From assembly GCA_965237525.1 (NCBI GenBank), contig CBDEFO010000008.1, positions 384,001-448,000 of the forward strand: DNA of 64,000 nt, given 5' to 3'. Positions within the stretch are counted from its first letter, which is position 1. Every line of letters starts with the position of its first letter. Source of the stretch: Candidatus Latescibacterota bacterium (GTDB lineage: Bacteria > Latescibacterota > CBDEFO01). Below, one piece after another: positions 3,267 through 24,317 of the stretch. A program made the translations under genes and the position numbers. The notes under the pieces were generated by a model. It did not search any database. It was given only the letters and a program-made list of their open reading frames with translations, and was not told the origin of the DNA.

Positions 3267-3287
3267 CCCCGATAGATTCAATCGGGG
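3267..3287. repeat. 21-bp palindromic repeat, copy 2
   Basis: CCCCGATAGATTCAATCGGGG. Confidence 0.8.
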
Positions 3288-3809: not shown

Positions 3810-3871
3810 TCAAGTCAAACACATTTCATGTTGCGATTTTACAAAGAGTCGTGTGCAGAAGATAGGAGGAG

Positions 3872-5213
3872 ATGATGAACGTTATTTTCATCGCTGTAGA
3901 CTCGTTACGGCAGGATCATGTAAGTTTCTACGGCTGGGACAATTGCCCTGTGGAGACACCTAACTTCGACAGGTTTGCAAGAGAGAGCATCGTCTTTGAA
4001 AACTGCTATCCTGAAGCGCTGCCCACCATCCCAGTTCGCACACAGTGGAAGACGGGACAGTTGCCACTATACTTTCAGACGAGGGCTATCTAACCGCCCT
4101 TTTTACCGATTGCTACCACTATTTTAAACCGAACTGTAATTTCCACCGGGATTTTAGGGTGTGGAGATGGATTCGAGGGCAGGAGTATGATCCCTATCGT
4201 TCAGGACCTTTGAAAAAATTCAAGCTCCAAGACTTCATCAACGACAAATTCCCTGACCGCGCCAAAGGCGGAATCATCTGGAGAAATCTGGTGGAGACGT
4301 GTTTGATTAACATCGAACCTTCGAGACGGGTGATGATCACTTCTGCGCTCAGTTGGTCTCTCAAGCCTCCGAGTGGCTTGAGGGTAATGAGTTGACCCTC
4401 GATAGATTCAATCGGGGGAACGATAGAGAGATATTTATGTGGGTCGACTCTTTCGATCCGCATGAACCCTGGACGCCGCCGCCAGAATTCGATAAATATA
4501 CCGACCCGGATTACAAAGGGAAACGATACATTTTGCCGCCTGGTGGTCCTTCTTCGGATTACTTCACAGAAGAGGAGATAAACTGCATACGCGGTTTATA
4601 CGCAGGAGAGGTAGCCTACGTGGATCATTATATAGGCAAACTGTTATACAAACTCGAGGAGTTGGGCTATTTCGATAACTCCCTCATAATCCTTATTTCA
4701 GATCATGGACATCCGCTCTCAGATCACGGTAAATTCCTCAAGGGTCCAGACAGGATGTACAACGAATTGTTGAAAGTGATGTTTATGATCCGCTTTCCGA
4801 AGGCAGAGTACGGTGGACAGAGATTGGACGCACTATCTCAGTTCCACGACATCCTCCCTACAATCCTGGATGCGATAGGGCTTAGGAATAACCTTGAGAC
4901 ACTTCAGGGACGGAGTCTGATGCCCCTGATAAAAGGCGAGACAAAAGAGTTCAGAGAGGCGATCGTTACGGGTTATCACGACGCTGCTGACCGCTGTATC
5001 AGAGACAAGGTATGGAGCTATATCCGCCGCCCCGATCCTGACGAGTTGTACAACCTCATAGACGACCCTCTCGAAAGGGTGAATCTCATAGACGATTATC
5101 CTCAGGAGGCTGTCAAATTGGCGTCGCTATTCGGATCGTCGTATGCCATAAGTGGAGAGCCAATTAAGGGAATCCAGGGACGCTACGAGATAGAAGGATC
5201 GGCAGCTGAATAA
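3872..5213 (+). pseudogene. Sulfatase-like hydrolase, split across three frames
   Basis: IAVDSLRQDH, TPNFD, FDPHEPW, YAGEV, ISDHG and ELYNL motifs lie in three ORFs; breaks near 4060 (apparent deletion) and 4320. Confidence 0.85.
4397..4417. repeat. 21-bp palindromic repeat, copy 3 (inside sulfatase coding sequence)
   Basis: CCTCGATAGATTCAATCGGGG, read in frame as part of TLDRFNRG. Confidence 0.75.
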
Positions 5214-5230
5214 AAGAGGGATCGGTCAAT

Positions 5231-5251
5231 CCCCGATTGAATCTATCGGGG
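5231..5251. repeat. 21-bp palindromic repeat, copy 4
   Basis: CCCCGATTGAATCTATCGGGG, the exact reverse complement of copy 2. Confidence 0.8.
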
Positions 5252-5350
5252 ATCAATTAGAAAACCAAGGTTATTTCAAAGATGAAACGATTGCTAACTT
5301 TCCTGAGCACGGTGTTTATTCCGCTTTCGTTTAGTTGAGGAAGGACGCAT

Positions 5351-6378: not shown

Positions 6379-6990
6379 GAGGTAGCCTACGTGGATCATT
6401 ATATAGGCAAACTGTTGTACAAACTCGAGGAGTTGGGCTATTTCGATAACTCCCTCATAATCTTTGTCTTAGATCATGAACATCCTCTTTCAGATCACGG
6501 CAAATTCCTCAAGGGTCCGGACAGGATGTATAACGAATTGTTGAAAGTGATGTTTATGATCCGCTTTCCGCAGGCAGAGTACGGTGGACAGAGATTGGAC
6601 GCACTATCTCAGTTCCGCGACATCCTCCCTACAATCCTGGACGCGATAGGGCTTAAGAACAACCTTGAGACACTTCAGGGACGGAGTCTGATGCCCCCTG
6701 ATAAAAGGCGAGACAAAAGAATTCAGAGAGGCGATCGTTACGGGTCATCACGACGCTGCTGACCGCTGTATCAGAGACAAGGTAGGGAGCTATATTCTCC
6801 GCCCTGATCCCGATCGCGACGAGTTGTACAACCTCATAGACGACCCTGGCGAAAGGGTGAATCTCATAGACGATTATCCGCAGGAGGCTGTCAAATTGCG
6901 TCGCAGTTCGGATCGTCGTATGCCATAAGTGGAAAGCCAATTAAGGGAATTCAGGGACGCTACGAGATAGAAGGGGCGGCGCCTGAATAA
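6379..6990 (+). pseudogene. Partial duplicate of the sulfatase 3' half (copy of about 4608-5213)
   Basis: Near-identical nucleotide sequence with no 5' half, an extra C at about 6697 and further indels. Confidence 0.9.
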
Positions 6991-7059
6991 AACGGTCAAG
7001 TTTAGAATATCAAGGACCGTTATACAAAATCGCATTGAAGCGATATGGGCTTGACGACC

Positions 7060-8500
7060 TCAGACGGGCAACTGCATCTGCGGTTCGCGCCGCAAGCCCG
7101 CCACGCTCGGCGTATTGAACCGCTTGCCTTCGACGATCTCTGCAACGGTGAGCATCTGCATCCTGGGGTAAGGAATGCCCAACACCTCAAGATCGCCCGC
7201 CTCGGCCATGAAGCGGTTGAAGTTCCGCGCCTTTGTCTCGCCTAGCGGCTCCATAATGATGAGCCCGGCCATGAGCGCGTCGTTGTTATCGAGTACGCCC
7301 AGGAGCGAGCGAAGGACGATGATTCCCACGTTCTTTCCGCCCTTGACCTCTATCACAAGGCTTTGCAAGTCTCGCTCGCCTAGGGCAGGCACGGCGAAGT
7401 AAAGGCGGCCGTCGATCCCCTCCGTCACCCGTAGGCCGCGACGTCACGAACCCATCCACCTGTTCGACGACCCACTTCTGAAACTGATACTTGTCGCGCT
7501 TCCATAGATCGCGTGCACCCTCCAGGTTGCGCGGTATGCCTTCGATAACGTAGTCCTTGCCAGCCTCCAGGCCGCAACGCTCCTGCAAGCGCTTTTGCGC
7601 GACTCGCTTGACGGCGTGAATGGCGATGTCAATGCCGATCCATCGCCGCCCAAGATGGTGCGCTGCTTCGAGCGTAGTGGCGCATCCGCAGAATGGGTCT
7701 AACACAAGGTCGCCTGGGTTGCTAGAAGCCTTGATAATGCGCTCTAACAAGGCTACTGGCTTCTGGGTGGCATAACCCATGCGCTCTTTGGATTGCGAGT
7801 GTAGATAGGGCAAATCCCACACATCATCCATTTTGGTGCCGCGCGCAGTATCTCGGCCTCCACGCAAATCCGTCTTGCCGTCAACACTCATAGAACGGTG
7901 GATCGTTTTTTCGCTGTAGGGTTGAAACTGGGTATTGAATACGGCCTGTTTCCCACTGCCATAACGCAATACAGTATCATGCATTCGTTGGAAATGTCTG
8001 TGGCCGGAAGGCCATCTCTTGTAATGCCAGATAATCTCGTTCCCAAAGTTCCGGTGTCCAAATATCGCGTCCATAAACACCTTGATGTAATGGCTGGCCG
8101 TCGGGTCGCAGTGCAGATAAATACTCCCCGTCGGTTTCAAGATTGACTTCATATAGAGCAGGCGTTCAGTCATGTATGATAGATAAGCCAAGAGGCGCGG
8201 CTGTGTGTTGCGCAGCGCAGTCATCCATAACCGCCAGAAATCCACAGTCGCATCGTCAATACCCGCCTCGCGCATCAAAACCGGCATGGTACGTATGGCG
8301 CGTTCGCGGTCGTCATCTAGCTCCCAGGTGTCGCAAAACGCCTCTACCTGATCGGGTAGCGGGCGTCCGGTTTCGTCCTTGTAGATGGCGTTGTAAGATC
8401 GGTTGGAGTTGAACGGCGGATCAAGGTAAATCAGATCCACGCTTGAAAATGGCATGTTCTGCATGATGGCAAGGCAATCGCCGTAGTAAAGCCGGTTCAT
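7060..8500 (-). pseudogene. Beta-class amino-methyltransferase fused to a C-terminal PD-(D/E)XK (Mrr-like) nuclease domain; +1 frameshift at about 7417-7420
   Basis: LIYLDPPF (motif IV), TQKP and LDPFCGCAT (motif I), then GIDG...IEVKGG in another frame; ATG overlaps the transposase TGA. Confidence 0.85.
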
Positions 8501-9372
8501 GCGAAGCACCCGCGCACGAAGGAGCCGAAGGCGTTGTCGTTCTCGCGCTGATTGTACTTGTAGCACGCCTCGGCAATGTAGAGGGGCATGTAGCGAGTGG
8601 AGTAATGATGATGCGACCCGTGCCACGCCCGCTTGATGAGCGACAATACGCCTTCTATCGTGCTCGTGTGGGCGAGACGTTGCGCGTAAGCCTTGCTATG
8701 GTCGATGACCAAGTGCCTAAACGCCCTCTCGATTGCGCGATAGCCCCTGTATTCGTCTGTGAGATCAGAAGGGAACCATCGGGGGTCCACAGTGCTCTTG
8801 ATGAACCGCAGGAGAGCCTTGCCCGTGAGGCCTTTGGCAACCTGCGCAACAACCCGCCCGCCGCGTTCTACAACGCCGACCACCGGGGTCTTACGCGTTC
8901 CGCGTCCGCGCGGGTTATTCCGAGGGGAAGTAGGTGAAACGTGGCGGGGGCGTCCGCCCACATAGGTCTCATCAACTTCGACGATGCCTCGAAGCAGGCC
9001 AGCTTGCGCAGAACCCATCTGCGCTCGGATGCGCACTTGCATGTAAAGAGCGGTGGACTGCACCAAGTTGAGGTCGCGGGCCAGTTGATGACTTGACAGG
9101 CTTTTTTTGGCGTTTACCATGAGGCCAATGCACAGGAACCACTTTTGGAGCGGTATCTTGGTGCCGCAAAAGACGGTGTTAGCTAGAACATTGTAGCTGC
9201 GATGGCAAGCGTGGCAGTTCCACCGGCCTATACGCTCTCCGTCTATCTTGCGCGCCACGCGGACGCTATCACAGTGCGGACAGTGCGGTTCGCTGTGCCA
9301 GCGCACCTTCTCAAGGTGCTCGATGCAGGCTTCCTGATTGGGGTAGCGGCTGAAGATGGTGAGTAAGTTCAT
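8497..9372 (-). CDS. IS1595-family DDE transposase
   Basis: Zn ribbon CPHC...CHAC, SSHQLARDL HTH, EVDETYVGG, TDEY, HTSTIEG, YIAEACYKYN; GGAGGA RBS. Confidence 0.92.
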   Translation of the reverse strand: MNLLTIFSRYPNQEACIEHLEKVRWHSEPHCPHCDSVRVARKIDGERIGRWNCHACHRSYNVLANTVFCGTKIPLQKWFLCIGLMVNAKKSLSSHQLARDLNLVQSTALYMQVRIRAQMGSAQAGLLRGIVEVDETYVGGRPRHVSPTSPRNNPRGRGTRKTPVVGVVERGGRVVAQVAKGLTGKALLRFIKSTVDPRWFPSDLTDEYRGYRAIERAFRHLVIDHSKAYAQRLAHTSTIEGVLSLIKRAWHGSHHHYSTRYMPLYIAEACYKYNQRENDNAFGSFVRGCFA

Positions 9373-9391
9373 GGCTTGTCCTCCTGCATCT

Positions 9392-9420
9392 AATATAGCA
9401 CGCGCCCTACAGAAAGTCAA
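9392..9420 (-). promoter_or_regulatory. Sigma70-type promoter for the element A operon, -35 overlapping the TIR
   Basis: TTGACT-17 bp-TATATT with an extended -10 TG. Confidence 0.65.
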
Positions 9421-9603
9421 GCCCATATCGCTTCAATGCGTAGTATCTAGAAGGACATACGAAGAACTCATACGGTCTGTCAGTCATTATCCTAATCATT
9501 TATGCTTACCCAGATGCAGAAGTATACCTTATTCATGTGTTTAACATCAGAAACAATCAGTCTAGGGAAATACTAGTATCCCTTATAAACGGAGGATAAC
9601 GCC

Positions 9604-9867
9604 ATGATATATGATGACCTTTTAGCCTTATTAGTTAGAATATCCTGTCACTTCCAGTATACTAAGATGAAACTGAGCGAGCTGTATTGCCCAGATGAAC
9701 TGCATGACGCAGATGCACTATTTGCCGATCTCAAACTCAGTGAGAGTATAGCTAACGATATTAAACATAAGCAGGCCGTGTTAGAGGAGGTTGTAAACCA
9801 GTATATAAACGGCATGCGTCTCTCCAAATCTATAATAGACAACGAAGCCAGCGACCCTACTGTCTAA
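9604..9867 (+). CDS. Hypothetical protein
   Basis: GGAGGA RBS, 87-aa ORF in an AT-rich segment. Confidence 0.5.
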   Translation: MIYDDLLALLVRISCHFQYTKMKLSELYCPDELHDADALFADLKLSESIANDIKHKQAVLEEVVNQYINGMRLSKSIIDNEASDPTV

Positions 9868-10122
9868 GATAGATATGGATTCTCCGATAGAAAGGGTAAG
9901 GACACAGACAACTGCCGCCTAGACCTACATGTAGCAACGCTGTTAATCCAGGACCGTCGCCTGATCCTCGATCTGCGGCTGTGCATATGTCAGTCCGAAG
10001 ACGGTATTTCAACACCAATCTGGTCGCTACCCTTAATGCGTGGCATCTATCGCACCGAGGTTCCGTCCCCGTCCCACCAAGTAATCAGACTGCGTTACGC
10101 CTCCTCCCGACTGTTCCCGGTT

Positions 10123-10629
10123 CTATTCCGAACCCCCGCACGGAGGTGATGCAGGCAACACGCCGTTCTTCAGCCATCGCACGAGCGCCTTGCCGGGATC
10201 GGCGATCTCCTCAACCGAGCCGTACCAGTAGGCTTCCCAACCCGTCTCCGGCAGACCCGTAAACAACATCAGATTGAGGGGATAGACCTCGCTATCGGTG
10301 CAGCGGCGAAAGTCGTCCCGGAACAGGAACACCGGCTTGTCCCAAGCAATCGCCATGCCCAGTTCCACCATCACTCCCTCGTCCGGGGGGCAACCGTTGA
10401 CCACCGCGAACAACCCCTCGGCCTGCCGCACATCCCGGAGATCGGCCTGGCCGATTTCATAGACCCAGCCCGGACTGGCACGGGCGATCTGGTTGTTACG
10501 CGCGAACGGCTCCCAGACTTCGGCCCCCAGCGCCTCCAGAGCCGCTACAATCTCTCCCAACGGCCCAGCGCACTGCTGCAGGGAGAAACCATAGGGGTTG
10601 GCCAGATAAAGAGTCTTTTTCGATGTCAT
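10123..10629 (-). CDS. Nucleoside 2-deoxyribosyltransferase family protein
   Basis: LYLANPYGFS, WEPF, DLRDV, PPDEGVMVELGMAIAWDKPVF, NLML motifs. Confidence 0.88.
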   Translation of the reverse strand: MTSKKTLYLANPYGFSLQQCAGPLGEIVAALEALGAEVWEPFARNNQIARASPGWVYEIGQADLRDVRQAEGLFAVVNGCPPDEGVMVELGMAIAWDKPVFLFRDDFRRCTDSEVYPLNLMLFTGLPETGWEAYWYGSVEEIADPGKALVRWLKNGVLPASPPCGGSE

Positions 10630-10736
10630 GTTCGAGTCCCTGGACTTAAGCATCCGCGAATTCATCAGCCAAGCACAACGGGTAAATTGCGGGTAGCGGC
10701 ATTCCGAGATCGGCGAAACAAGGATAGCAAGCAGAA

Positions 10737-12359
10737 CGCATTGAAGCGATATGAGCTTGACGACCTCAGACGGGCAACTGCGTCTGTGGTTCGCGTCGCA
10801 AGCTCGCCACGCTCGGCGTATTGAACCGCTTGCCTTCGACAATCTCTGCAACGGTGAGCATCTGCATCCTGGGGTAAGGAATGCCCAACACCTCAAGATC
10901 GCCCACCTCGGCCATGAAGCGGTTGAAGTTGTGCGCTTTCGTTTCCCCCAACGGCTCCATGACGATGAGCCCAGCCATGAGCGCGTCGTCATTGTCGAGC
11001 ACGCAACGCAACGCGCGAAGGTCGTGGATGCTGACGTTCTTGCCGCCCTTGACTTCGATGACCATGCTTTGTAGCTCGCGTTCTCCTGGCACGTCGCAGT
11101 AAACACGCCCGTCAATACCGCCGTCGCCCGTGCGCCGCGATGTTACAAAGCCGTCTACCTGTTCGACGGCCCACTTTTGGAAGTGATACTTGTCTCGCTC
11201 CCATAGGTCGCGCGGTATGCCTTCGATAACGTAGTCCTTGCCAGCCTCCAGGCCGCAACGCTCCTGCAAGCGCTTTTGCGCGACTCGCTTGACGGCGTGA
11301 ATGGCGATGTCAATGCCGATCCATCGCCGCCCAAGATGGTGCGCTGCTTCGAGCGTAGTGGCGCATCCGCAGAATGGGTCTAACACAAGGTCGCCTGGGT
11401 TGCTAGAAGCCTTGATAATGCGCTCTAACAAGGCTACTGGCTTCTGGGTGGCATAACCCATGCGCTCTGAGCCTAGCGCGGGGCCGATGTCATGCCAAAT
11501 GTCATTCGGGGCTATTCCCTTGCCGGGCCTCTGCTTTCTCCAAACCACATCGTCTATAAACTCTAATTCGCCTTCTTCGTCTAAGGTAATAAGGCGGTCT
11601 TTGCTTGTAGTCCATCCCGATTTGTGAGGTGGGTATATCCCTTTGTATTCATAGCAAAGATTGGGGCGCTCACCTAGTCCGGGTGGACGAAATGGGCTCC
11701 TTCGCTTGTAGGGGCCTTTCTCATCGAGGCAAGGAAAGTCTGTCTCTATGTTTTTGTATGGGGTCATGATTTCAGTCCTTGTAACTCTATGCCCCCCCCG
11801 ACTTTGAGTAGAAAAGAACCCTATCGCTTGACCGCCCAAAGCCCTTTGCCTTGTGTTGGCTCCCTTTTCCAGCGCCTTTAATTCGCTCCCATGCGATTTC
11901 GTTCCTGAAGTTGTCATGCCCGAATATCGCATCCATTAGCACCTTGATGTAATGGCTGGCCGTCGGGTCGCAGTGCAGATAAATACTCCCCGTCGGTTTC
12001 AAGATTGACTTCATATAGAGCAAGCGTTCAGTCATGTATGATAGATAAGCCAAGAGGCGCGGCTGTGTGTTACGCAGCGCAGTCATCCATAACCGCCAGA
12101 AATCCACAGTCGCATCGTCAATACCCGCCTCGCGCATCAAAACCGGCATGGTACGTATGGCGCGTTCGCGGTCGTCATCTAGCTCCCAGGTGTCGCAAAA
12201 TGCCTCTATCTGATCGGGTAGCGGGCGTCCGGTTTCGTCCTTGTAGATGGCGTTGTAATATCGATTGGAGTTGAAGGGCGGATCAAGATAGATCAGATCC
12301 ACGCTCATCAACGGCATGCTTTGCATGATAGTAAGGCAGTCGCCGTAGTAGAGCCGGTT
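10737..12359 (-). mobile_element. One-ended relative of element A (element A')
   Basis: TIR at 10737-10761 matches element A at 24/25 positions, followed by a paralogous methyltransferase-nuclease gene; no transposase or second TIR seen. Confidence 0.8.
10766..12359 (-). pseudogene. Paralogous methyltransferase-PD-(D/E)XK fusion with a different target-recognition region; frameshift at a G8 tract (11792-11799)
   Basis: N- and C-terminal blocks are near-identical to 7060-8500 while the centre is unrelated; the ATG of MNRLYYGD is missing. Confidence 0.85.
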
Positions 12360-12848
12360 GCCACCGGAGCTTCCGCGCCTGCTTGATTTTCTTCCGACAA
12401 TCCTTACGTGCTTCGTCAACGATCTCGTTGCGGGTACCGCGAAATGTCCTCTCTGTGGCTTGGCAATCCCATCGAGCCTTCCGATAGGCTTCCTCCAATC
12501 GCTTCACCTTGCCAGTTGCGGATAGCCGTAGATCGCGGGCCTCGCGAGCCTCCCGGTTTCTTTCGATCTGGGCGGCGTCGGCGTCAATAAAATACTGTGC
12601 TATAGAGGTGCCAGACCTAGTGATATCCTCAGCAGTAAATCGAGGGTTGCGCCACGAAGTTCTGGCTGTGGCCCATGCCTTCTCTTGATTGACGAATGAA
12701 GAGAGAGCGGATGCATTGATATTCGGGCCGCGTCCGCCCGCTGCGATCACGCCAGCTTCCACCAGCTTCGCGCTACCGACGGCCTGAATCTGACTTGCGG
12801 CTTGGTTCCAATTAAAAGTTCCTTCTGGTATTTGTTCTTCTGGCATTG
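12283..12848 (-). CDS. Hypothetical protein (coiled, basic C-terminus); the 3' end runs into element A'
   Basis: GGAG RBS before MPEEQ; no recognised family. Confidence 0.45.
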
Positions 12849-12974
12849 GTGTCTCCTCCGGTAGGACTTCTTTGTCAAGCACTTTGCTCAGTTTCAATAT
12901 AAGCTCTTTGTCGAAATTGAGCTTTTTTCTCTTTCTCCTGTCGCTGCAGGTTTTCCCGCATAGCCCTTAAAAAC

Positions 12975-13898
12975 TCAGGAGTCTTCAGCAACTCCTTCGT
13001 CTTCGTCGCGTTCTGGGTTTTCTGTACTTGTTCGTTCGCCTTCGTTGTCTGTTGCATTTTCTTCTCCTTTACTCCCGTCCAATCTTGCGGAATAATTGTC
13101 GTCCTGGTGAGGATCGATAAACTTTCTAATCGCATTCCACAGGGACCTTATGTTATCCGAGGGGTCTTCGACTCTTGAAAAAAGTTTTTTTGCCTCAATT
13201 CTGTCGATTACAAATCCATGGGCAGGATAACCTTCTACTAACGAATTAACCGTACTAAGACTTGCATTTCCCCCTCGTTCCACCAGTCTTTGCCCGTATG
13301 CCTTGGCAACATTCAGATCCCTTAAGTCGCTTCCTAAAGCCTCTGGATCGATTTGCGCATAGACAGGCTGCATAACCGCTGTAGCAATATTTGACGCAAT
13401 TTTAGATGCGACCTCAAAGCTGACCGAGTGTCGGCTTTGGGTCGTTATAGCCCACCTCACCTGTTCATATATGGTTAACGTTTCATCCGCTAATCCTGCA
13501 AGTGCCGTCCGAACTATCAGGCCTGATCTTCTTTGCCCAATTTCATCTCGTTTTACGAGTTGCACATCGAGCGGGCCAAGTTCAGCTAATTCGTCCATCA
13601 TAATTATATTGGCACCTAATGCGATAATTGTTCCCGCACTTTTACATCTGGTTGGGACAAATAGGTAAAAGGTTTTAAAGGTAGTCTGGAACAGCCTTGC
13701 TATTTTATAAGCAATATGCGCACTTCCTCCATTTGTTGCCAGAATTAGAAAGACATTATCTTTAGGCTCATCAGATGAATATATGGATTCCATTAGACGC
13801 AGCATGCTGTCCTCATCAATGGGGCCTGTATATACAGCAACATGGGCGTCGAGATCGGCGGAAACTACGTTAGCAGCTTCTCTGATTTTAGGGTGCAT
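12975..13898 (-). CDS. SDH-family ClpP/SppA-fold serine protease
   Basis: LILATNGGS, CKSAGTIIALGA, ELGPLDVQ, YPAHGFVID. Confidence 0.85.
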   Translation of the reverse strand: MHPKIREAANVVSADLDAHVAVYTGPIDEDSMLRLMESIYSSDEPKDNVFLILATNGGSAHIAYKIARLFQTTFKTFYLFVPTRCKSAGTIIALGANIIMMDELAELGPLDVQLVKRDEIGQRRSGLIVRTALAGLADETLTIYEQVRWAITTQSRHSVSFEVASKIASNIATAVMQPVYAQIDPEALGSDLRDLNVAKAYGQRLVERGGNASLSTVNSLVEGYPAHGFVIDRIEAKKLFSRVEDPSDNIRSLWNAIRKFIDPHQDDNYSARLDGSKGEENATDNEGERTSTENPERDEDEGVAEDS

Positions 13899-14133
13899 TT
13901 TGTTTGTCCTGTTGTGCATGCCACCTGGCGCTGGCAGCCGTCTGTGCAATCTCAGTGCGCCTTTCGTCCGTTATTTTGCCATGCAGAGCCGCAGCACCAG
14001 CCTTACCGCCCTTGACCTTGTTCGGCTGCTTGTACCCCTCATCTTCAACCTCACCCGTGGCTATCTTAGCTACCTTTACTGCACAGCCGACCGCGTCCGC
14101 AGGCCGACGCACTCCTCTTGGTCCTTTAGGCAT
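13888..14133 (-). CDS. Small basic protein of the type often found beside IS1-like transposases
   Basis: MPKGPRG..RPAD..G.AVKV..IATGE...GGKA.A....ERR.EIA..AA.ARW pattern, recognised from memory. Confidence 0.7.
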   Translation of the reverse strand: MPKGPRGVRRPADAVGCAVKVAKIATGEVEDEGYKQPNKVKGGKAGAAALHGKITDERRTEIAQTAASARWHAQQDKQNAP

Positions 14134-14312
14134 CCGGAGCAACCTCCCTTGAAGTTTGGGGAGCCAATAATATCAGGGCCATCATTCTCAATGACAAGCT
14201 AAATCTAACCTGGTTCCCCATTTCAACCGAAAGGTGGGTGGTAAATGGTTTACTTAATAAACCTTTTCTTGTCAAGGGCAAAAAAAGTGTAGGTGAATTC
14301 CCCCTAGGCCAA

Positions 14313-14331
14313 TTCAAACTGAGACACTACC
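14313..14331 (-). mobile_element. Isolated IS1-like terminal repeat
   Basis: Reverse complement GGTAGTGTCTCAGTTTGAA; it marks the compositional junction next to the terminase 3' end. Confidence 0.5.
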
Positions 14332-14366
14332 GGCTTGTCTAATGTAAGTGAAACGGTGTAAGCCCC

Positions 14367-15290
14367 TTATATTGTCATCCAGTTATAGTTATCTTCTTTT
14401 TTCTGGTGAGTGCTTAAAGATTCCCAATTAACGGTTTTATCGTAGGGAGAACTTATGTTAGTAAGTGCCTTCTCACAAGCATCCCATACGTCGTAGTGAT
14501 GACCTCCGCGTGGTCTCTCAACAGGGAAATCATACGCCTCATCCTTAAGTATCTCAGCACTGGAGGGCTTGACAAGAACCTGTTCCTCTCTAAAGAACGG
14601 CATGATAGACCTTATACGCGCTATCTTGTCAGTAGATTCAACTATGATCTTCTTGTCAATATATATCTCCCTCTTAAGCTCCTCTACTCTTAACCACTGC
14701 AAGACAGCATCCATAGCGTTCTTCTCAAAGATAAACCTCGGTCTATTAAACTTCTCCCTAAGGACAAAAATAAGCTCTATAGCATCGACAACATCTATCC
14801 TGACCTTTGTTATATCATCGAGGTACTTCTGTCCGTTCCACTGCATATGAAGAGGAACAAACGCCGAGAAGTTTGATCTCTTGTTCTTGGTGAATCCCAG
14901 GTCTACACCTATTGTCGTAGCAACGGGTATCCGAGTATCTCCTGTTTCATCTACTTTCGATAAGTAGCCATTCCCACCAGACGTAGGATGCTTCTCAAAG
15001 TCAAGATCGTGATAGTGAGATAGATAGCTCTCTGGAATCTCTATATCGTCAGACCCCCTTGACCTATTTTCATACTCCCTGTAATAAGTCTTGAGATTGT
15101 TTCGAAGTTCATAGTCCTTCTTGATCTGAGCTATCCGCGCATTGCTAAATTTCTTAGGCCAGATACTCTGTCCATTCTCATCAATATTCCTGTAGAATAG
15201 ACCCTGCCACATCATTCCAGGTTTAGACTTAGGCAAATCATCAGCATATCTTTGACCTACCTGTCTGCCAGTGGCAGCCTTCCAAAGATT
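14367..15290 (-). pseudogene. terL: Phage terminase large subunit, C-terminal (nuclease) part
   Basis: IWPKKF, YYREYEN, IGVDLG, IFEKN and HYDVWDA motifs; in frame with 17810-18465 once the IS is removed. Confidence 0.88.
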
Positions 15291-15312
15291 GGGAATAATA
15301 TACTTAACGCCA

Positions 15313-15993
15313 CTAAATGATTCTCGTGCGTTTCTCGTATAGTCGGCCTATCTCATCTGATTTGACCCTGAACTTAACCCCGTGATCTCTCACCGCGCCT
15401 GATTCCTTGATGTATGCATCGAAGTCCACTATCACGAGGCCCCTTTCAATCGACCGCATGAGGCCCGACAGCTTGATTTGTTCGTAGGCCGTGGCGTGTT
15501 CGTATTTCACTTGACGTGGATTCCGCTTTATTTGCCCCGTTACAAGAATCAGACGGCTCAACTTCCTGCCCGCCGCGTTCAGTAGATCGTCTTCCGTCCA
15601 GCAGACCTCCGGATTCATCCCTTCTTCATGGCGCACCCAAATAGACCCGGCATCGTAGGCGATGTTGAAGCCCCTGTCTGATTCGCCCTCGATTGTATGT
15701 CGAAAGGATGGGCGTCCGTTCCTTCCCTTCCAGCCGAATTTGTTGATGATGAACTTCATCGAGCCTTTGGGCCTTGGCGTCTTGTGAAATAGCGTAATGA
15801 GCGCGGTGCCGCTTGAGTATTTCAACTCGAAGGTTCCGGCGTCGGGAATGTCCACGTTTGAGGTTTCGAGGCCCAGGAGACTTTCGAGAAGACGACCTGG
15901 TGCGCCGGAGCCTTGATAGTCGCTCGGTAAATCCCGCCATCCGCTCTTGCACAATTCCCGCACTTGGTCGAACAGGGCCGTTCTCGAGGTCAT
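15313..15993 (-). CDS. MvaI/BcnI-family restriction endonuclease
   Basis: G..G.LLESLLGL...N..IPD...FELK, LITLFHK.P and RDHG.KFR signature. Confidence 0.85.
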   Translation of the reverse strand: MTSRTALFDQVRELCKSGWRDLPSDYQGSGAPGRLLESLLGLETSNVDIPDAGTFELKYSSGTALITLFHKTPRPKGSMKFIINKFGWKGRNGRPSFRHTIEGESDRGFNIAYDAGSIWVRHEEGMNPEVCWTEDDLLNAAGRKLSRLILVTGQIKRNPRQVKYEHATAYEQIKLSGLMRSIERGLVIVDFDAYIKESGAVRDHGVKFRVKSDEIGRLYEKRTRII

Positions 15994-16802
15994 TTCAGTT
16001 TCCGATACGCCGCCAGCCTCTCATCCGCTAGGCGACAATATCTTTTGCTCTTTTCGATACCGATCCATTCCCTTCCCTCAGATTCCGCCGCGATCGCGGT
16101 CGTGCCGCTTCCCATGAAGGGGTCAAGCACGATTTTCCCCGTGGTGGAGCCGATGCACCTTTGAGCTAACTCCGTAGGGAATGGGGCAGGATGGGGGTTG
16201 TTGGATTCTTGGGGGATTTCCCAGATGTCGCCGACGGCGTTCGCCTTGGGAGCAAGCTGAAACTCCGGCTTGGCGATAAGGTAAATGACTTCGTAGGTGG
16301 GGAGAAAATAGCCTTTGTTGAAATTGATGCCGCCCTTGCGTCGCCAGATGATGATCTGGCGGACGGGGAAGTCCTCAACGATATCGCTCCGGTCTTGGAG
16401 AAAGCCGCCTTGGACGCGCCACTTGTGGTTGTAGAAAATAGCCCCGCTCTCCTTGATTAGTCGCATCATGGCCTTGAGGCCTTTCCTTTGCCACTTCACG
16501 TACTCATCATGCGGCATACAATCTTCGTGTTCCTCGTAGCCCTTAATGAGCGCGGCATTCGGCCACTTGCCACCGCTCCCGTTCTTCATGCCGTTTCCAG
16601 TGGATTGCTTGAGGTTGTAGGGTGGAGAGGTAACGATCAAGTCGATGGAAAGCGCGGGGATTTTGTTCATCAATTCGACAGTATCCCCTTCATGCACCTT
16701 GCCGAGCCATCGGCTCATCGCGTTTTCGGAAAGGGTCTGCGCTCCGGCTTTCAGCAATCCATCGAACGACAAGGGGATTTGTACCCTTTGCGCGTTGGTC
16801 AT
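15990..16802 (-). CDS. Beta-class N4-cytosine/N6-adenine DNA methyltransferase
   Basis: IVTSPPY, HPAPFP, VLDPFMGSGTT; ATGA overlaps with both neighbouring genes. Confidence 0.92.
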   Translation of the reverse strand: MTNAQRVQIPLSFDGLLKAGAQTLSENAMSRWLGKVHEGDTVELMNKIPALSIDLIVTSPPYNLKQSTGNGMKNGSGGKWPNAALIKGYEEHEDCMPHDEYVKWQRKGLKAMMRLIKESGAIFYNHKWRVQGGFLQDRSDIVEDFPVRQIIIWRRKGGINFNKGYFLPTYEVIYLIAKPEFQLAPKANAVGDIWEIPQESNNPHPAPFPTELAQRCIGSTTGKIVLDPFMGSGTTAIAAESEGREWIGIEKSKRYCRLADERLAAYRKLK

Positions 16803-17716
16803 GTAATCAAAGCCTTGTAGGTCAAGCGGGAGCCAAAGCCGCTTTCGAGCATAGAATCCATGCGCTGGCCGCCAGCGGAGCCATTCAGGTTCCATCGGAA
16901 GGCAAACTCTGAGAGGTAGCGGTTCAGGTGCTTCCATGAGAACTGGTGAAACACGCCATTGTAGCCGCGCTTGAGCATTGACCAGAAGCTCTCGATTCCG
17001 TTCGTATGGGCCTTGTCCCGCACATATTCGCCCATGATGTGAACAACGAACTCATGGTCATAGAACTCACCCAAGCCCCTGTAACTTCGATGATCGTCCG
17101 TGTAAACCGTGGAGCCTAGCAACACGTTATCTTCGATGAATCCGACCATCGTGTTCCTGTCTGTCATGGAAATCTTCTGCGCGAACACATTACCTTCACG
17201 CGAGCGCACGCCGATAGCGACATCCTTGCCCGCAGGCCCGCGTCCGGCCTTGGCCTTCTTGGAGTTGTGCTTGTTCTTCTCTTTGCCGCCCAAATAAGTT
17301 TCGTCCGCTTCCACTTCCCCGTTCATGGGCGGGGAGTTTTCGAGCGCGGTTTCAGCCGCCTTGCGGAGACGCCCGAGCATGAACCACGCCGTCTTTTGAC
17401 TCACGCCCACTTCCCGCGCTAGTTGATAGCTACTGATTCCCTTGCGGTTCGAGGTAACGAGCCAAGCGGCCATAAACCACTTGCGGAGAGGAAGTCTTGA
17501 TTCCTCATAGATCGTGCCCTTGCGGATACTGAACTCATCCCCGCAATCTGAGCACTTGTAGACGCCTACACGCTTGCGGCTGTAGATTTTCCCAGCGCAT
17601 CCGCACAAGGGACATATCTTTCCGGCGGGCCAGCGAAGTTCTTCAAGGTGGGCCACGCAAGCGGCCTCATCTGGGAAGGCTTCTAGCATTTGAAGCAGTG
17701 TGTCATAATTCTTCAT
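16799..17716 (-). CDS. IS1595-family DDE transposase (intact)
   Basis: CPLC...CSDC, GISSYQLAREVGVSQKTAWFML, EADETYLGG, YTDD, HTNGIESFW, YLSEFAFRWN. Confidence 0.95.
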   Translation of the reverse strand: MKNYDTLLQMLEAFPDEAACVAHLEELRWPAGKICPLCGCAGKIYSRKRVGVYKCSDCGDEFSIRKGTIYEESRLPLRKWFMAAWLVTSNRKGISSYQLAREVGVSQKTAWFMLGRLRKAAETALENSPPMNGEVEADETYLGGKEKNKHNSKKAKAGRGPAGKDVAIGVRSREGNVFAQKISMTDRNTMVGFIEDNVLLGSTVYTDDHRSYRGLGEFYDHEFVVHIMGEYVRDKAHTNGIESFWSMLKRGYNGVFHQFSWKHLNRYLSEFAFRWNLNGSAGGQRMDSMLESGFGSRLTYKALIT

Positions 17717-17809
17717 GTCTTGATTCTCCGCAATTTAGTGGTGTTCTGTCAAGCAACCCTATACCACTAATATATTGCATTATGCGGTGGTGTCAAGTAT
17801 ATTATTCCC

Positions 17810-18465
17810 CAAAGATTAGATAATAAAGATTCCTCATGTAGAACGGTCCCTCCTATAACTATTTTACCCTCATAGGAAGGCAATACAGTTCCATCAAGCC
17901 AGTCAGATAACTTAGCTCTTGAGTCAGCAGTTCCAGTATTAGCCTCATTTTCCAGATCGTCACATATTATAAGATCAGGTCTCTTTCCTAACTTTAGAGA
18001 CCCTCTCACTTGTTGACCAGCACCTTTAGCCCTAATAGTAATCCCATTAGAAGTTACTATTTCCTTCTCAGTCCACTTGCCAACCCCTAAGCCATCCCAA
18101 TTCCTCTTAGCTACAAAATTACCAAAGAGTTTGATTACGAGCTTATTAGTCTCCATCTCATTTTTAGCAGCCTCTAGAAAGTCAACAGAAGCTGGCAGGG
18201 TATCAGATATTATCATGATAAACTCACGCTCTTCAAAGAGAGCCTGATGTAAGATATAGACAAAGCTGAGTATTGTAGACTTGGCACGTGCTCGCGGGGC
18301 TACATAGATAGACCTCTCGTGATTTTCGAGTATATGACTATATATTTCCTTGTGGAAGTTAGGCACACCATATTTCTTCTGTATCCTATGAGGGAATAGA
18401 ATCATAGAGAACAGTGCAAGATCATCGTGCAGTTTCTTGAGATTGGTGTTCCCTATTGCTGTCAA
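17810..18465 (-). pseudogene. terL: Phage terminase large subunit, N-terminal ATPase part
   Basis: Walker A-like APRARAKST, GAGQQVRG, Walker B RPDLIICDDLE, GTVLH. Confidence 0.9.
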
Positions 18466-18881
18466 GGCACCTTCCTGTCGGTAAAAGTGATATTTCCCTG
18501 ATCTGCCCTGCGATCCAGAATCTTAACTTTCTTTTTTACTTCGTCACGCCATCCCTTATATGGACCTGGATTATCAATCAAGATTAGATTCAGGATTATG
18601 TCGCTCGCTACATGTATGGATTCAGGGTAGTCTATCTTGTATGTAACCTCGTTATTGGCTACTAACTTATTGAATACTATGTCTAAGGGTGAGGACTCCT
18701 GATCCTTATCACACACATTTACAGTCAGACGAAAAGCACCATTGTCACCATCCCTAAGTTTGTAGGATATCCTCACTTCCCTTGCCTGTGTTATCCGGTG
18801 TATCAAGTTCTTTAGCTGGAGGGGAGTCAGGGAATTCATCTTCTTTGCCATCATCTTCCTCGTGAAGTACGAACTCTGCAT
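18462..18881 (-). CDS. Phage hypothetical protein between putative terS and terL (start uncertain)
   Basis: Stop overlaps the terL start (TTGA); same AT-rich composition. Confidence 0.55.
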   Translation of the reverse strand: MQSSYFTRKMMAKKMNSLTPLQLKNLIHRITQAREVRISYKLRDGDNGAFRLTVNVCDKDQESSPLDIVFNKLVANNEVTYKIDYPESIHVASDIILNLILIDNPGPYKGWRDEVKKKVKILDRRADQGNITFTDRKVP

Positions 18882-19497
18882 CTTCTATCCTATCCCCAAG
18901 TCCTCGTAAAAGGCTATCCCTATCCTCATTTGTCTTAAGAACATCTTCTCTATAAGACTTGAGAGCTCTAAGAGCTTCCAGTTGACTAGGCTTATTACCT
19001 TCTTCTACCATACGTTTTAAATTAGTGAGGAAATACTTATCATCAATATTTAGCTCGCTCAGCATTCCCTTCATTCTTTTTTCTATTTCAGACTGCACAT
19101 CCGGTTGATTAAACACTCGCCTAGCCCTCTTTTTCCAAGAGTCAGTATTAGTGGTATATACCCTAGAAAACGCCTTATAAACGTCGAAGAAAATAGTATA
19201 CTGACGAGCAAATTCTTTGCGCTTGATAGTAGTGTGGATTTGTTTGGGATCGGATTTAGGCTCATGGGTCTTATCAATATACATTCCCTTTCTGGCCCTT
19301 ACCATATACTGACCCGTAATGGTACACACAAAACCTGGGGCAATCTTAAGTACCTCAAGAACTTTGCCACAGTCAGAGATAACCCAATCACCTGGCTGGC
19401 CAAGCCTCCAGTCTCTCTTTACATCAAGTTGATTGTCATGAGTGGCTTCTATCAGGTTCTCGTAAACCTTGCGCCCTTTTACCAGTTTCATATCCAT
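18754..19497 (-). CDS. Putative phage terminase small subunit
   Basis: Upstream of terL; HTH-like KRKEFARQY...KAFSRVY...VFNQPDVQSEI followed by a helical oligomerisation-like region. Confidence 0.55.
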   Translation of the reverse strand: MDMKLVKGRKVYENLIEATHDNQLDVKRDWRLGQPGDWVISDCGKVLEVLKIAPGFVCTITGQYMVRARKGMYIDKTHEPKSDPKQIHTTIKRKEFARQYTIFFDVYKAFSRVYTTNTDSWKKRARRVFNQPDVQSEIEKRMKGMLSELNIDDKYFLTNLKRMVEEGNKPSQLEALRALKSYREDVLKTNEDRDSLLRGLGDRIEDAEFVLHEEDDGKEDEFPDSPPAKELDTPDNTGKGSEDILQT

Positions 19498-19636
19498 AAT
19501 ATAATACTTTTACGAGAATTGTGCAAGGCCCTTGACAATTTGCCAAGTCATATGTACATAAAGAAAGTCCTTAGACAATGTTATGAGATATTATTTATAC
19601 TATATATATATAGTATAAATAGTCAGAAAGGACTTT

Positions 19637-20184
19637 ATGGAAATATCAGCTAATATTTTATGTGGAGACTGCACTCGAACAGTTAAAAGAGCTTAATGAT
19701 AATTCGATAGACCTCATCATTACATCTCCACCCTACACTGATCAGCGGAAAAATACTTATGGCGGTATACATCCAGATAAGTATGTTGAGTGGTTTTTGC
19801 CAATATCAAAAGAGTTGCTCAGAGTTATGAAGCCAACAGGTTCATTGATTCTGAATATAAAGGAACTTGCAGTAACAGGAGTCTAAGAGTGGAAGTGGCT
19901 TTGGAAGGAACAGGTCTAGTTGGTTAAAAAGAGATATGGTTTATCCAACAAATGTGCTGCATATGGCAGTAGAAACTCATAATAAGAATCATAGTGCTGC
20001 TTTTCCTGAATCGCTTCCTGAATGGGTTATTAAGCTTCTTACCGAAGAGAACGATGTTGTTTTAGATCCGTTTATGGGGTCTGGAACAACTATTAAAGTG
20101 GCTCAACGTCTTAAACGAAATTCAATAGGAATTGACATTCAAAAATCCTATTGCGATATGGTTTCTGAAAGTATCAAACAGTGA
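19637..20184 (+). pseudogene. Degenerate beta-class DNA methyltransferase
   Basis: IITSPPY and HSAAFP/VLDPFMGSGTT lie in separate ORFs; 5' frameshift and missing central region. Confidence 0.8.
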
Positions 20185-20217
20185 AAAAACTTTACATAAT
20201 AAAAGGGAATTATATAC

Positions 20218-20246
20218 TTGACTCCACCTAATTCTTTCAGTATCTT
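20218..20246 (+). promoter_or_regulatory. Sigma70-type promoter with -35 inside the element C TIR
   Basis: TTGACT-17 bp-TATCTT, then a GAGGGGG RBS. Confidence 0.6.
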
Positions 20247-20269
20247 TACTCGGTAACGAGGGGGTGTAT

Positions 20270-21198
20270 ATGTCAAGTAAGACTCTGAGTTTATTTGAGT
20301 TAATGCAGATTTCCCCAGATGCCAAAAGCGCGAGAGAATATCTCGAATCAAGAGGATGGAAGGAACATACCATTTGCCCGCTCTGCGGTGATTATGAGCG
20401 CATCACCGCGAGAGGCGGGAAGCGCACTGGATATTATCGCTGTCGCGACTGTAACGAAGAGTTCACTGTGCGCACCAAAACCATCTTTGAGCGTTCCCAT
20501 GTTCCTCTTCATAAGTGGATATACACCATGTACATGGTGGTTACGGCTCGGAAAGGCGTCTCTTCCCTTCAGATGTCCAAAGAGATTGGCGTCACTCAGA
20601 AGACGGCGTGGTTCATGTTGCAGCGCCTCCGGGAAGCATGTGGCGACGATCTCTCGAAGCTGAATGGCATCGTTGAAATAGACGAACCCTATGTTGGCGG
20701 CAAGGAGGCCAACAAGCACGCATCGAAGAAGCTCCGAGCGGGGCGGGGAACAGTGGGGAAACAGGCCGTCTTGGGTTTTCGCGAGCGTGATGGCAAGTCA
20801 GTGGCGCGTCCGATTGCAGGCACGAACAGTGCCGTTCTTCATCGAGAAGTCGCCAAGACGGTTGAGTTGAGTTAGGCTCTGCGATTCATACTGACGACCA
20901 TCTCGGCTATCAGGCGCTTCTCGGCTATATTCACAAGCACATCCGTCACGGTGCAGGGGAGTATGTAGGCTCTGGCGATGTTACAACCAACAGCGTCGAG
21001 AGCATGTGGGCACTTTTCAAGCGCGGACTCTATGGCACATGGCATCAGGTCAGCCGGAAACATCTGGCGCGATATGTGAACGAATGCACGTTCCGCCTGA
21101 ATGAGGGCAATGTCAGATTCGATACCAAGGATCGACTGAACAGCTTCGCTGATCGCGCCTTTGGCCGTCGTCTCACCTATGCAAGGTTGACTGCGTGA
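20270..21198 (+). pseudogene. IS1595-family transposase, frameshifted by a 5-bp tandem duplication
   Basis: CPLC...CRDC, GVTQKTAWFML, EIDEPYVGG; GTTGA-GTTGA at 20861-20870; continues HTDD...TNSVESMW...YVNECTFRLN. Confidence 0.9.
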
Positions 21199-22274
21199 GC
21201 CCTCTACGAAAGCAAGTTCCAAAGGAGCTTGATCGAATTGTCGATCAAGTGCTTACCTACAACTGTCCAGCAGACAGGTCGGAAGACTTCCGCTTCATCG
21301 ACCTGTTCGCCGGGATCGGCGGAATGCGCCGCCCGTTTGAGGAAATCGGCGGGCGTTGCGTGTTCACGTCAGAGTGGGATCGGTTCTGCAAGGAAACCTA
21401 CACCGCGAACTTCCCGGAGCCAGCAGACAGCGATCACGAGTTCATTGGTGACATACGGCCTTGTGCGGTGAATCCGGAAACCGTGCCGACACATGATGTT
21501 GTGTTGGCCGGGTTCCCGTGCCAACCGTTTTCGATAGCCGGTGTGTCGAAAAAGAATTCGCTCGGTCATCCTCACGGCTTCCTGTGCGATACGCAGGGAA
21601 CGCTCTTCTACGATCTGGCAAAGATCATCGACTACCATCGGCCCTCGGCCTTTCTCCTTGAGAATGTGAAGAACCTTGCCCGGCATGACGGTGGTCGGAC
21701 ATTCACAACAATCATGCAGGTTCTTGAAAGTGAGCTTGGCTACAATGTGAGCACCCGAATCGTGAATTCCTCTCCGTGGGTCCCACAGAAGCGCGAACGG
21801 ATTTTCATGGTAGGGTTCAGGCAAAAGACGGCCTTTGATTTCGACGAACTGGCAATACCGACAGGTTGTGCACCGACTCTCGGAGCCATCCTCGATACGG
21901 ATGTTGACCCCAAGTACACACTCACCAAGCACATGTGGAATTACCTTCAGGGCTACAAGAAAAAGCATCGGGACGCAGGCAACGGGTTCGGCTATTCGCT
22001 GTTCGGCCCTGATGATGTTGCCCGCACTCTCTCTGCCCGCTACCATAAGGACGGATCGGAGATACTCATCAGACACAGGGGCAGGCGTCCCCGCCGCCTG
22101 ACCCCGCGAGAATGCGCACGTCTGATGGGATTCGAGAAACCCGGCAAGGCTGAGTTCAGGATTCCGGTGTCCGACACCCAAGCCTATCGACAGTTCGGCA
22201 ACGCCGTGGTTGTTCCCACTGTGCGGGCCGTGGCCCGACTCATGAGGCCCCACATTTCCATGAACCAGGCGTGA
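21195..22274 (+). CDS. dcm: DNA (cytosine-5) methyltransferase, Dcm/M.EcoRII-like
   Basis: FIDLFAGIGG, GFPCQPFS, LLENVKN, PQKRERIF, RTLSARYHKDGSEIL, QAYRQFGNAV. Confidence 0.95.
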   Translation: MSPLRKQVPKELDRIVDQVLTYNCPADRSEDFRFIDLFAGIGGMRRPFEEIGGRCVFTSEWDRFCKETYTANFPEPADSDHEFIGDIRPCAVNPETVPTHDVVLAGFPCQPFSIAGVSKKNSLGHPHGFLCDTQGTLFYDLAKIIDYHRPSAFLLENVKNLARHDGGRTFTTIMQVLESELGYNVSTRIVNSSPWVPQKRERIFMVGFRQKTAFDFDELAIPTGCAPTLGAILDTDVDPKYTLTKHMWNYLQGYKKKHRDAGNGFGYSLFGPDDVARTLSARYHKDGSEILIRHRGRRPRRLTPRECARLMGFEKPGKAEFRIPVSDTQAYRQFGNAVVVPTVRAVARLMRPHISMNQA

Positions 22275-22285
22275 CCAACTGATTC

Positions 22286-22759
22286 ATGGCTGCCGATAGT
22301 GTGACGCCGGATGTTCGCAGTCGGATGATGGCCGGGATCAGGGGCAAGAATACGAAACCGGAGTTGGCAATCCGGTCTGCATTGCATTGCCTCGGTTTCC
22401 GGTTTCGCCTACACCGCAAGGATCTGCCGGGAAAGCCCGACCTAGTGTTCGCGAAGCACAAGGCGGTGATTTTCGTTCACGGGTGTTTCTGGCACGGCCA
22501 TGACTGCCACCTGTTTAAATGGCCGAAGACCAAGGGTGAATTTTGGAAACAGAAGATCAATTCAAACATCGCGCGGGATCGCAAGCAGCTATTGGCCCTC
22601 GCGGACAGCGGATGGCGTGTGGCGGCGATCTGGGAATGCGCTCTCAAAGGCCGGACGCGCCTTCCGATTGAGGTAATCGCAGAGCGTTGCGCGATTTGGC
22701 TGGAATCGAACGAAAACGAACTGAGGTTGAGCGGTGATGAAACGTGGACAGCTGCGTGA
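22286..22759 (+). CDS. vsr: Very short patch repair endonuclease
   Basis: RSRMMAGIRGKNTKPE, LPGKPD, FVHGCFWHGH, IWEC. Confidence 0.95.
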   Translation: MAADSVTPDVRSRMMAGIRGKNTKPELAIRSALHCLGFRFRLHRKDLPGKPDLVFAKHKAVIFVHGCFWHGHDCHLFKWPKTKGEFWKQKINSNIARDRKQLLALADSGWRVAAIWECALKGRTRLPIEVIAERCAIWLESNENELRLSGDETWTAA

Positions 22760-23967
22760 CTATTTTGCTGGGGTGGGCGTAAAGAGGCTGTCTGCCGTGG
22801 ATGCCGACTCTACAAGATCAAGATCAAACCAGCACGAGGTGGGTACCACGTTAGACATGCGACGTCAGTTTCTTGGCGAGGATGATAAAACCCGATTTCC
22901 GGTGGTTTATGTCTGGCTGGGTCAGGAGCAGGACGGCTTTACAGCCCAAGGCGATGCGACTCATTACGATGCACGGGCAATGAAGACCGACCGGGGACCG
23001 GAGTGGCGTCTCTACTATTCTTCCAATCCGGTCACGGAAGCCATGCAGAAAGGCGACACGCTGTTTCTGGCGTTGACAACCGACCGGGTTCTCTACTTTG
23101 TCGTCGCGCCGGCAGGCTCGACCAGCGAACGGGAACTCTCCTGGCTCTTTAGTTTACACCCCGCTGGGATATCCTTCGTGTCGCGCGAGTTCGACGACGA
23201 CGAGCGGGAACTGGACTTTGCAGCCCGTTTCCTATTTGACGAGATTGGAATGGAGTTCGAGGAGCGGGACGCGGACAGACTTGACAGCATCATCGACAGG
23301 TTCGGCACGGCGTTTCCGAAAACTGTGGAGTTCTCGGATCTTGCCCGCCGTACCCTGTCTGAGGTTAGGGCCGAGGACGATCCCGATATAGCGCTTGTGG
23401 CTTGGATAGACCACGAGGAAGCGCTGTTTCGGCGTCTTGAACGACGGATTGTAGCGACACGTCTTGAGGAAGGATTTATCGATGGGAACGGGACCGATGT
23501 GGACGGTTTCATGCGGTTCTCGCTGAGTGTCCAGAACAGAAGAAAGTCGCGCATGGGTCATTCTCTGGAGCATCATCTGGAGGAGGTATTTCGAGCCTAC
23601 GACATTACGCATGTTCGTGGTGCCGTGACTGAGAACAACCAAAAGCCGGATTTTCTGTTTCCCAGCAAGGAAGCCTATCGGGCCGCTCCGGAAACCGGCG
23701 ATGCATGCCTGACCATGTTGGGGGCCAAATCCACCTGCAAGGATCGCTGGAGGCAGGTCCTAGCCGAAGCGGCGAAGATACCGAGAAAGCATCTTCTGAC
23801 GCTTGAACGAGGCATTTCCGAGCCGCAGACAACCCAGATGGCGAATTCAAGACCTGCAACTCGTTGTACCGCAATCGCGTCAGGGTAGCTATACGGACGA
23901 CCAACGGGCTTGGCTTTGGAATCTTGCGGAGTTCATTCGAGACGTAGAGGCTCGCGCGTGCAAGTAG
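22737..23967 (+). pseudogene. EcoRII-like type II restriction endonuclease, +1 frameshift at about 23850
   Basis: SNQHE, QNRRKSRMGHSLE, KPDFLFP, GAKSTCKDRWRQVL; the alternative frame gives DLQLVVP...WNLAEFI ending at TAG 23967. Confidence 0.88.
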
Positions 23968-24317
23968 ATGCATGTTCGTACATGTTGTATTCGTGCCCCT
24001 GAACATTGTCTTGTCCTCCGTCTTTTCAAGCCATTCGTTTGGGAGTCAACTATATAATTCCCTATTAATTGAAGGAAGAGGAAGGAAGATGATTTATGGG
24101 CATATTTCTAATCACCATTTCCTTAATACTGATTTACATAACAAGGTACGCATGGAACCATCCGCTGAATAGACCTCAAGCATTTCGATTTATGAGAAAG
24201 GTTTCTCTTCTTTCCATTGGGTTATTAATTGTCGGAATTTATGTAGCATTTAAGTGATTTTATGCATGGAATTAGTGAAATCCGGTTTGGATAAGCTATC
24301 CCAAGAGAGGGATAACA

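Follow-up and report, generated by a model that had tools for sequence, protein, structure and literature searches.

How restriction-modification (RM) systems shift so fast between chromosomes is a long-standing question, and it is raised again by a 64,000-nt stretch of a Candidatus Latescibacterota genome (GenBank GCA_965237525.1, contig CBDEFO010000008.1, positions 384,001 to 448,000; hereafter the window). Here, three insertion sequence (IS) elements of the IS1595 family, called A, B and C, each enclose a different RM system between terminal inverted repeats (TIRs), and a one-ended copy, A′, lies among them. A first-pass annotation had proposed all four, and they were found where it had placed them, with well-matched TIRs (Table 1). 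In the reading that we consider probable, A, B and C are cargo transposons in which the contents of an RM slot are likely to have been swapped by recombination, and in which a small open reading frame (ORF), a likely partner of the transposase, lies beside the cargo, behind it or fused to it. Each such element would hold a single DDE transposase, together with a slot for passenger genes, between its terminal repeats.

The transposases of A, B and the N-terminal piece of C exceed the cutoffs of PF12760, PF12762 and NF033547, and the elements show the hallmarks of IS1595: a transposase with a zinc ribbon and a DDE domain, TIRs of about 20-26 bp and an 8-bp target duplication (around B and five other elements of the same genome). 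In all three, the transposase stop codon overlaps the first cargo start by four bases, as had been claimed (ATGA at 8497-8500 in A and at 16799-16802 in B, GTGA at 21195-21198 in C). The proposed cargo types also stood up to family models, with the nuclease half of A, which matches no family itself, placed through its similarity to the Mrr_cat region of a relative (31% identity, E 2e-10). The cargo of B consists of adjacent intact methyltransferase and endonuclease genes (PF01555, PF15515; PADLOC MTase_II, REase_II). Other parts of the proposed layout held only in part. The last stop codon, said to abut the far TIR in A and B, touches it in B and ends 4 nt away in A (74 nt in C), and the anticipated promoter takes the form of an inward-directed sigma-70-like site beginning in the left TIR of each element, a weak signal alone since the region has 28 such sites versus 17 in shuffles. 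The elements had been treated as one family; all are IS1595, but A falls outside the lineage of B and C, its transposase being about 30% identical to theirs and its TIRs of another type. The best plasmid and phage records are 43% and 36% identical to the B transposase, respectively. Each TIR pair encloses a single transposase instead of two IS copies flanking the cargo, as in a compound transposon, and A and A′ as the ends of one were rejected because no duplication is common to both.

Element B inserts as one unit with an 8-bp duplication, and its position differs between samples. Its empty site appears as a joint that skips exactly 2527 nt (2519 + 8, that is, B plus one target copy) and leaves a single target copy; this joint was seen in two other studies, in runs X2 and X3, which represent one sample, and in X7, where its depth is 2.5 with 35 letters on the short side. 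The right end of B is joined to foreign flanks in X3 (668 nt) and X6, so that the same element occupies other loci, and one X3 contig covering 15291-17290 runs continuously from the nuclease via the methyltransferase into the transposase, across both gene junctions. A 3142-bp sister element with a methyltransferase and an EcoO109I-type nuclease is cleanly missing at the orthologous site of a congener (G001). Movement as a single unit, a defining property of transporter IS (tIS), is thus seen in the empty and new sites of B and in the G001 empty site of its sister. B interrupts a phage terminase gene and one sister element adjoins a capsid gene fragment. Prophage targeting as a rule was rejected, the ORFs across C8:305-385 kb being mostly host-like by eye. 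Insertion targets are AT-rich, at 80% versus 45% in the flanks (82 elements, described below).

The genome to which the window belongs (G000) contains 21 such transposase loci, 14 of which are TIR-bounded with cargo. Thirteen of these 14 carry a DNA methyltransferase gene, and six (B and five others) have a perfect 8-bp duplication; the remaining seven loci comprise bare short elements and fragments, and a methyltransferase gene adjoins two of them. Ten kinds of cargo are represented, including Type IIG, methyltransferase-HNH, Dam-type plus nuclease and EcoO109I-type systems. Family searches, with split matches merged and three weak motif-only matches dropped, gave 27 distinct methyltransferase loci versus about six in G001, and 13 of the 27 lie inside TIR pairs spanning 45.5 kb, or 1% of the genome. 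The elements account for much of this strain-level rise in methyltransferase number. No non-autonomous RM cassettes were found beside the other methyltransferases in a TIR scan allowing up to two mismatches. Two elements of this genome, C8:336391-340527 and C7:175441-179341, each have an additional inner right TIR, and two partner ORFs are present in the former, which suggests nested or extended elements.

Comparison of these elements reveals shells and cargoes in mixed combinations. Three of them are 97% identical over their first 1012-1027 nt and 89-94% identical over their last 235-247 nt, yet these near-identical shells enclose three unrelated RM systems. The Dcm-Vsr-nuclease block of C recurs on one of the three, with 73-84% protein and 78-80% nucleotide identity, and the transposase of that shell is only about 42% identical to that of C. 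One junction retains the last 36 residues of a transposase from another clade (72% identity to that clade, 37% to its own) and another retains a 17-residue transposase scrap; such foreign remnants point to recombination between elements. A′ is 96.7% identical to a full element at C8:357668-360222, and its fusion gene is of the same kind as that of A but with a different target-recognition region. When A is compared with that full element, identities of 89% and 87% flank a replaced middle of the methyltransferase, which is likely to be this region. RM cargo has therefore likely been traded between elements through recombination.

The first ORF behind the transposase is often a basic peptide of 40-70 residues, of two types, which also occurs as an N-terminal tag on cargo proteins. 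Models of the T1 and T2 partners, built from 24 and 11 stand-alone copies chosen by eye, match 37 of 91 long first-cargo N-termini at 8 bits versus none of 2718 host N-termini and none of 1820 shuffles, and all tag matches (46/46) lie on the transposase strand. The Dcm of C carries T1 (25.9 bits), whereas its homolog on the other shell does not score. Related peptides stand free behind the cargo in five elements of the genome and have been kept through cargo swaps. T2 is related to a third group, T3 (profile probability 68-85%), whereas a single family of T1 and T2/T3 is unsupported (below 1%); T1 fell into unnamed clusters only in the atlas and had no match in NCBIfam or PHROGs. Single-base codon changes among 40 distinct T1 cores comprise 3353 synonymous and 537 nonsynonymous ones, an excess inflated by the anchoring of the cores on a conserved motif. 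On a quick tree of 156 transposases, with metagenome rows and broken and short sequences excluded, tag type changes once over 81 rows (at least 18 times in shuffles), methyltransferase family 18 times over 55 rows (at least 19 in shuffles) and the stand-alone or fused state of the tag 13 times, near-copies raising the apparent clustering; the 43 T1 rows, with the C transposase, form one branch (SH-aLRT 100). The type of partner peptide tracks the transposase lineage, not the cargo, and the small ORF is likely to belong to the transposon itself as a putative partner of its transposase. On a single viral contig (L210:6977-8002), transposase and T1 peptide share one open frame, as a natural fusion or through a one-base error.

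Relatives were collected from genomes (79 loci), metagenomes (80) and viral contigs (79), 238 in all, each being the best of about 500 matches per scan, and the sample leans toward the clade of B. With methyltransferase models made from the G000 genome and only loci with a 3-kb flank counted, a methyltransferase gene lies within 3 kb downstream of the transposase in 27 of 74 genome loci versus 3 of 70 upstream; the corresponding counts are 15/62 and 1/68 for viral and 3/21 and 0/21 for metagenome loci. Eighty-two elements have TIRs and an exact duplication, and 80 of them exceed 1.3 kb. Those with a methyltransferase from genomes (14 of 36) span eight phyla by record title, and the gene pair of B itself recurs in Omnitrophota, Chloroflexota, Bacteroidota and one viral contig. 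Together with the 13 elements of G000 and the empty sites, these relatives bear out the first-pass proposal of a recurring single-transposase class that moves RM systems. Its further suggestion that the class is devoted to RM found no support as worded: 22 of the 36 genome elements lack a methyltransferase and carry P63C-domain, toxin-antitoxin or uncharacterised genes. RM is the commonest named cargo though not the sole one, the others being P63C-domain proteins, toxin-antitoxin genes and one TnpB (113 of 169 cargo ORFs were scanned, about half without a family). T2-tagged P63C-domain proteins of 320-340 residues recur as first cargo (L042, L045, L065, L066, L081, L093, L251, L253), sometimes followed by MazF or SocA/Panacea genes, and at L168:2633-3886 a TnpB (Cas12f-like) gene overlaps the transposase stop within IS1595 TIRs flanked by an 8-bp duplication. 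No clear RM cargo or tag was found at eight transposase loci of G003, G012 and G027 and one of G001, with TIRs unmapped.

These data suggest how the elements may work. Transcription from a promoter in the left TIR would place transposase and cargo on a single, translationally coupled message, and new cargo may often enter by fusing in frame with the resident small ORF, through which it would gain its overlapping start, or by insertion beside it. RM cargo might be favoured by phage protection combined with a short-lived addiction, from which a host would escape by losing the nuclease first. By their open frames, 6 of the 13 RM cargoes in G000 are apparently whole and 7 are broken, a count that speaks against addiction being strong and lasting.

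Several observations weigh against this account. RM cargo is a minority in TIR-plus-duplication elements elsewhere, a methyltransferase being present in 14/36 from genomes, 1/23 from metagenomes and 5/23 from viral contigs. A and C lack a target duplication, and B, the one element of the three to have it, is also the sole intact one. As no RNA run contains the stretch, co-transcription rests on the gene overlaps and the consensus match. Neither CCWGG nor CCSGG shows avoidance in the genome, with observed/expected ratios of 0.92 and 1.03, so that this measure gives no sign of active restriction. For the partner ORF, A scores on no partner model and is untagged; the 30-residue N-terminal extension of the B methyltransferase only weakly resembles T2 (2.4 and 1.6 bits on the T2 models, below threshold), with a profile-profile probability of 52% between the B clade and the T2 alignment; and no partner matches at 10 bits in 15/36 genome, 22/23 metagenome and 8/14 own elements.

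The near-universal presence of methyltransferases in the cargo elements of G000 (13/14) could instead reflect an RM-specific transposon family retained through post-segregational killing, which was the reading of the first-pass annotation. Such a family would also fit the finding that a whole separate nuclease never stands beside a broken methyltransferase among the 13 elements, as well as the conservation of the B layout within a single transposase clade, across Omnitrophota, Chloroflexota and viral contigs. We nevertheless consider it unlikely, given the 22 genome relatives with other cargo, the frequency of broken RM cargoes and the absence of B from its site in other samples. RM cargo furthermore rides on transposases that are 28-47% identical, indicating more than one lineage, and self-cutting alone would yield nuclease-first decay, so that the decay pattern does not demonstrate addiction.

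The tag raises another alternative, that the cargo chiefly serves the element, with a peptide-tethered methyltransferase controlling transposition or shielding the element together with the phage or plasmid that carries it, and host defence being secondary. The tag does track the transposase, and in 19 tree rows it is joined to a C5, N4/N6 or Dam-type methyltransferase; 15 of 62 viral loci have a methyltransferase downstream, and several relatives have one without a nuclease (L031, L047, L220). However, the same tag is fused to non-methyltransferases in 17 rows and stands alone in 45, the same Dcm is untagged on another shell, and a nuclease gene is also present in most of the G000 elements; we therefore regard this explanation as improbable. 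Least credible is a chance pile-up of plain IS1595 copies beside RM genes, or a misjoining of repeats, for although the 7-24.7 kb segment of the window, bounded by a sulfatase gene and clpB, is a variable island with other genes in G001, and A and C lack duplications, the RM genes lie within paired TIRs with exact duplications, the upstream methyltransferase control is almost empty, junctions are spanned in short-read contigs from other studies and empty sites are known, that of B refuting the idea for this element.

Returning to the cargo-transposon reading, a more ambitious version holds that a large IS1595 branch is two-component. The peptide would bind and regulate the transposase and double as a fusion handle, and its fusion to a methyltransferase would tie jumping to the methylation status of the cell, letting an RM system move only after its methyltransferase has been made; these elements would be a main engine of RM turnover. 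We find this possible but doubtful. If true, such elements supply half of a genome's methyltransferases and shuffle whole systems and specificity regions between shells.

Table 1. Coordinates of the elements and associated genes in the window
Feature	Position	Strand	Description
Element A	7031..9440	-	IS1595 element; TIRs 7031-7055/9416-9440 matching 25/25; decayed
A transposase	8497..9372	-	frame open
A cargo	7060..8500	-	beta-class N6-adenine methyltransferase (DPPF) fused to Mrr-like PD-(D/E)XK domain
A′	10737..12359	-	one-ended copy; single TIR 10737-10761
Terminase large subunit (phage), C-terminal part	14367..15282	-	split off by B; phrog_38
B target duplication, 8 bp (CAAAGATT)	15283..15290	+	second copy 17810-17817
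Element B	15291..17809	-	TIRs 15291-15313/17787-17809 matching 21/23; intact; position polymorphic between samples
B endonuclease	15313..15993	-	MvaI/BcnI family
B methyltransferase	15990..16802	-	beta-class, SPPY, probably N4-cytosine type
B transposase	16799..17716	-	DDE, D138/D207/E242 all present
B promoter-like site	17769..17796	-	11/12 match; starts inside left TIR
Terminase large subunit (phage), N-terminal part	17810..18465	-	other side of B
Element C	20205..24062	+	TIRs 20205-20225/24042-24062 matching 20/21; decayed
C transposase	20270..21198	+	frameshift near 20870
T1 partner peptide	21195..21270	+	fused onto N-terminus of C Dcm
C C5-cytosine methyltransferase (Dcm-like)	21195..22274	+	
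C Vsr endonuclease	22286..22759	+	PF03852 family
C EcoRII-C-type endonuclease	22734..23967	+	frameshift ~40 codons before end

The breaks in C and A′ occur in short-read contigs too, which rules out assembly error for the C transposase (X1, X2, X3), the C nuclease (X1 only) and A′ (X1, X5), although run X1 possibly represents the source sample. That of A′ lies near 11791, within the methyltransferase, and the fusion gene of A is frameshifted near 7417, between its methyltransferase and nuclease halves. The A transposase has TS in place of the conserved TN ahead of the catalytic E, and differs from its version in run X2 by a short stretch altered through compensating indels. Just beyond the left TIR of C, a broken methyltransferase (19637-20184) is 51-59% identical to that of the EcoO109I-type sister element. 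Elsewhere in the window, a sulfatase gene is duplicated (4353-5215 and 6379-6992), its second copy frameshifted and adjoining A; a repeated palindrome of about 27 nt lies between genes at 2330-5256 and is present dozens of times in G001; an SDH-type Clp-fold protease gene and an 84-residue ORF (12975-14142) separate A′ from the terminase remnant; and a duplicated block at 40377-42220 contains 99-nt repeats, presumably ankyrin-like by their period, with an 18-nt tandem array at 41752-41913.

Transporter IS were reportedly defined by Siguier, Gagnevin and Chandler in 2009, and ISfinder lists methyltransferase passengers for some IS1595 members. The tIS definition covers IS1595 and IS66, and the elements described here share its single transposase, passengers inside the TIRs, IS1595 family and 8-bp duplication; they differ in carrying complete RM systems, which number ten kinds in this genome and have likely been swapped between shells, and a conserved small ORF able to fuse to the cargo, neither RM cargo nor such an ORF being named in the relevant passages of the sources (10.1101/2021.05.26.445724; PMC3129680). 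The tested cases MTnSag1/tISSag10 and tISCpe8 likewise combine an IS1595 transposase, TIRs of about 25 bp, an 8-bp duplication and internal cargo, but as presented in the part of the source that concerns them, that cargo is lincomycin resistance (for tISCpe8 according to a cited title) and mobilisation is via Tn916 (PMC5704250). The cargoes of B and C belong by sequence models to the MvaI/BcnI and EcoRII/Dcm-Vsr Type II families (PF15515, PF09019, PF03852), although the C nuclease is broken in the assembly.

One earlier RM unit includes a gene of COG3677, which we take to be IS1595-like. In Neisseria gonorrhoeae NCCP11945, Type IIG and S genes and this transposase-like gene are enclosed by 26-bp inverted repeats, and both an 8-bp duplication and an empty site are reported (Furuta, Abe and Kobayashi 2010, PMC2853133). 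As described in the sections of that paper on the unit, it is single and likely inactivated, has no IS family given, and was left undecided as to its mover, transposase or RM enzymes (PMC2853133); the elements reported here, in contrast, have intact transposases, many cargoes and strain-level movement. The architecture was thus half catalogued already, as a transporter-IS frame and one published RM case. Our literature search yielded no account of IS1595 elements with RM cargo as a class, nor one of the small ORF; ISfinder, REBASE, the defining reviews and the supplementary table of Furuta 2010 (24 inverted-repeat-flanked RM systems) lay outside that search, and the table may list more cases. 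New here are how many such elements a single genome holds, the traces that exchange has left in them, the rise in methyltransferase number between strains and the mapping of tag type onto the transposase tree.

For the inverted-repeat-flanked RM units whose mover Furuta 2010 left undecided, the vehicle is here named and caught moving, and element B offers an intact 2.5-kb object for tests. Because TIR pairs mark the ends of uncharacterised cargo, the shells are also a guide to new nucleases and defence genes. Finally, to judge from the small partner ORF, an IS family taken to consist of a single gene may have a second component.

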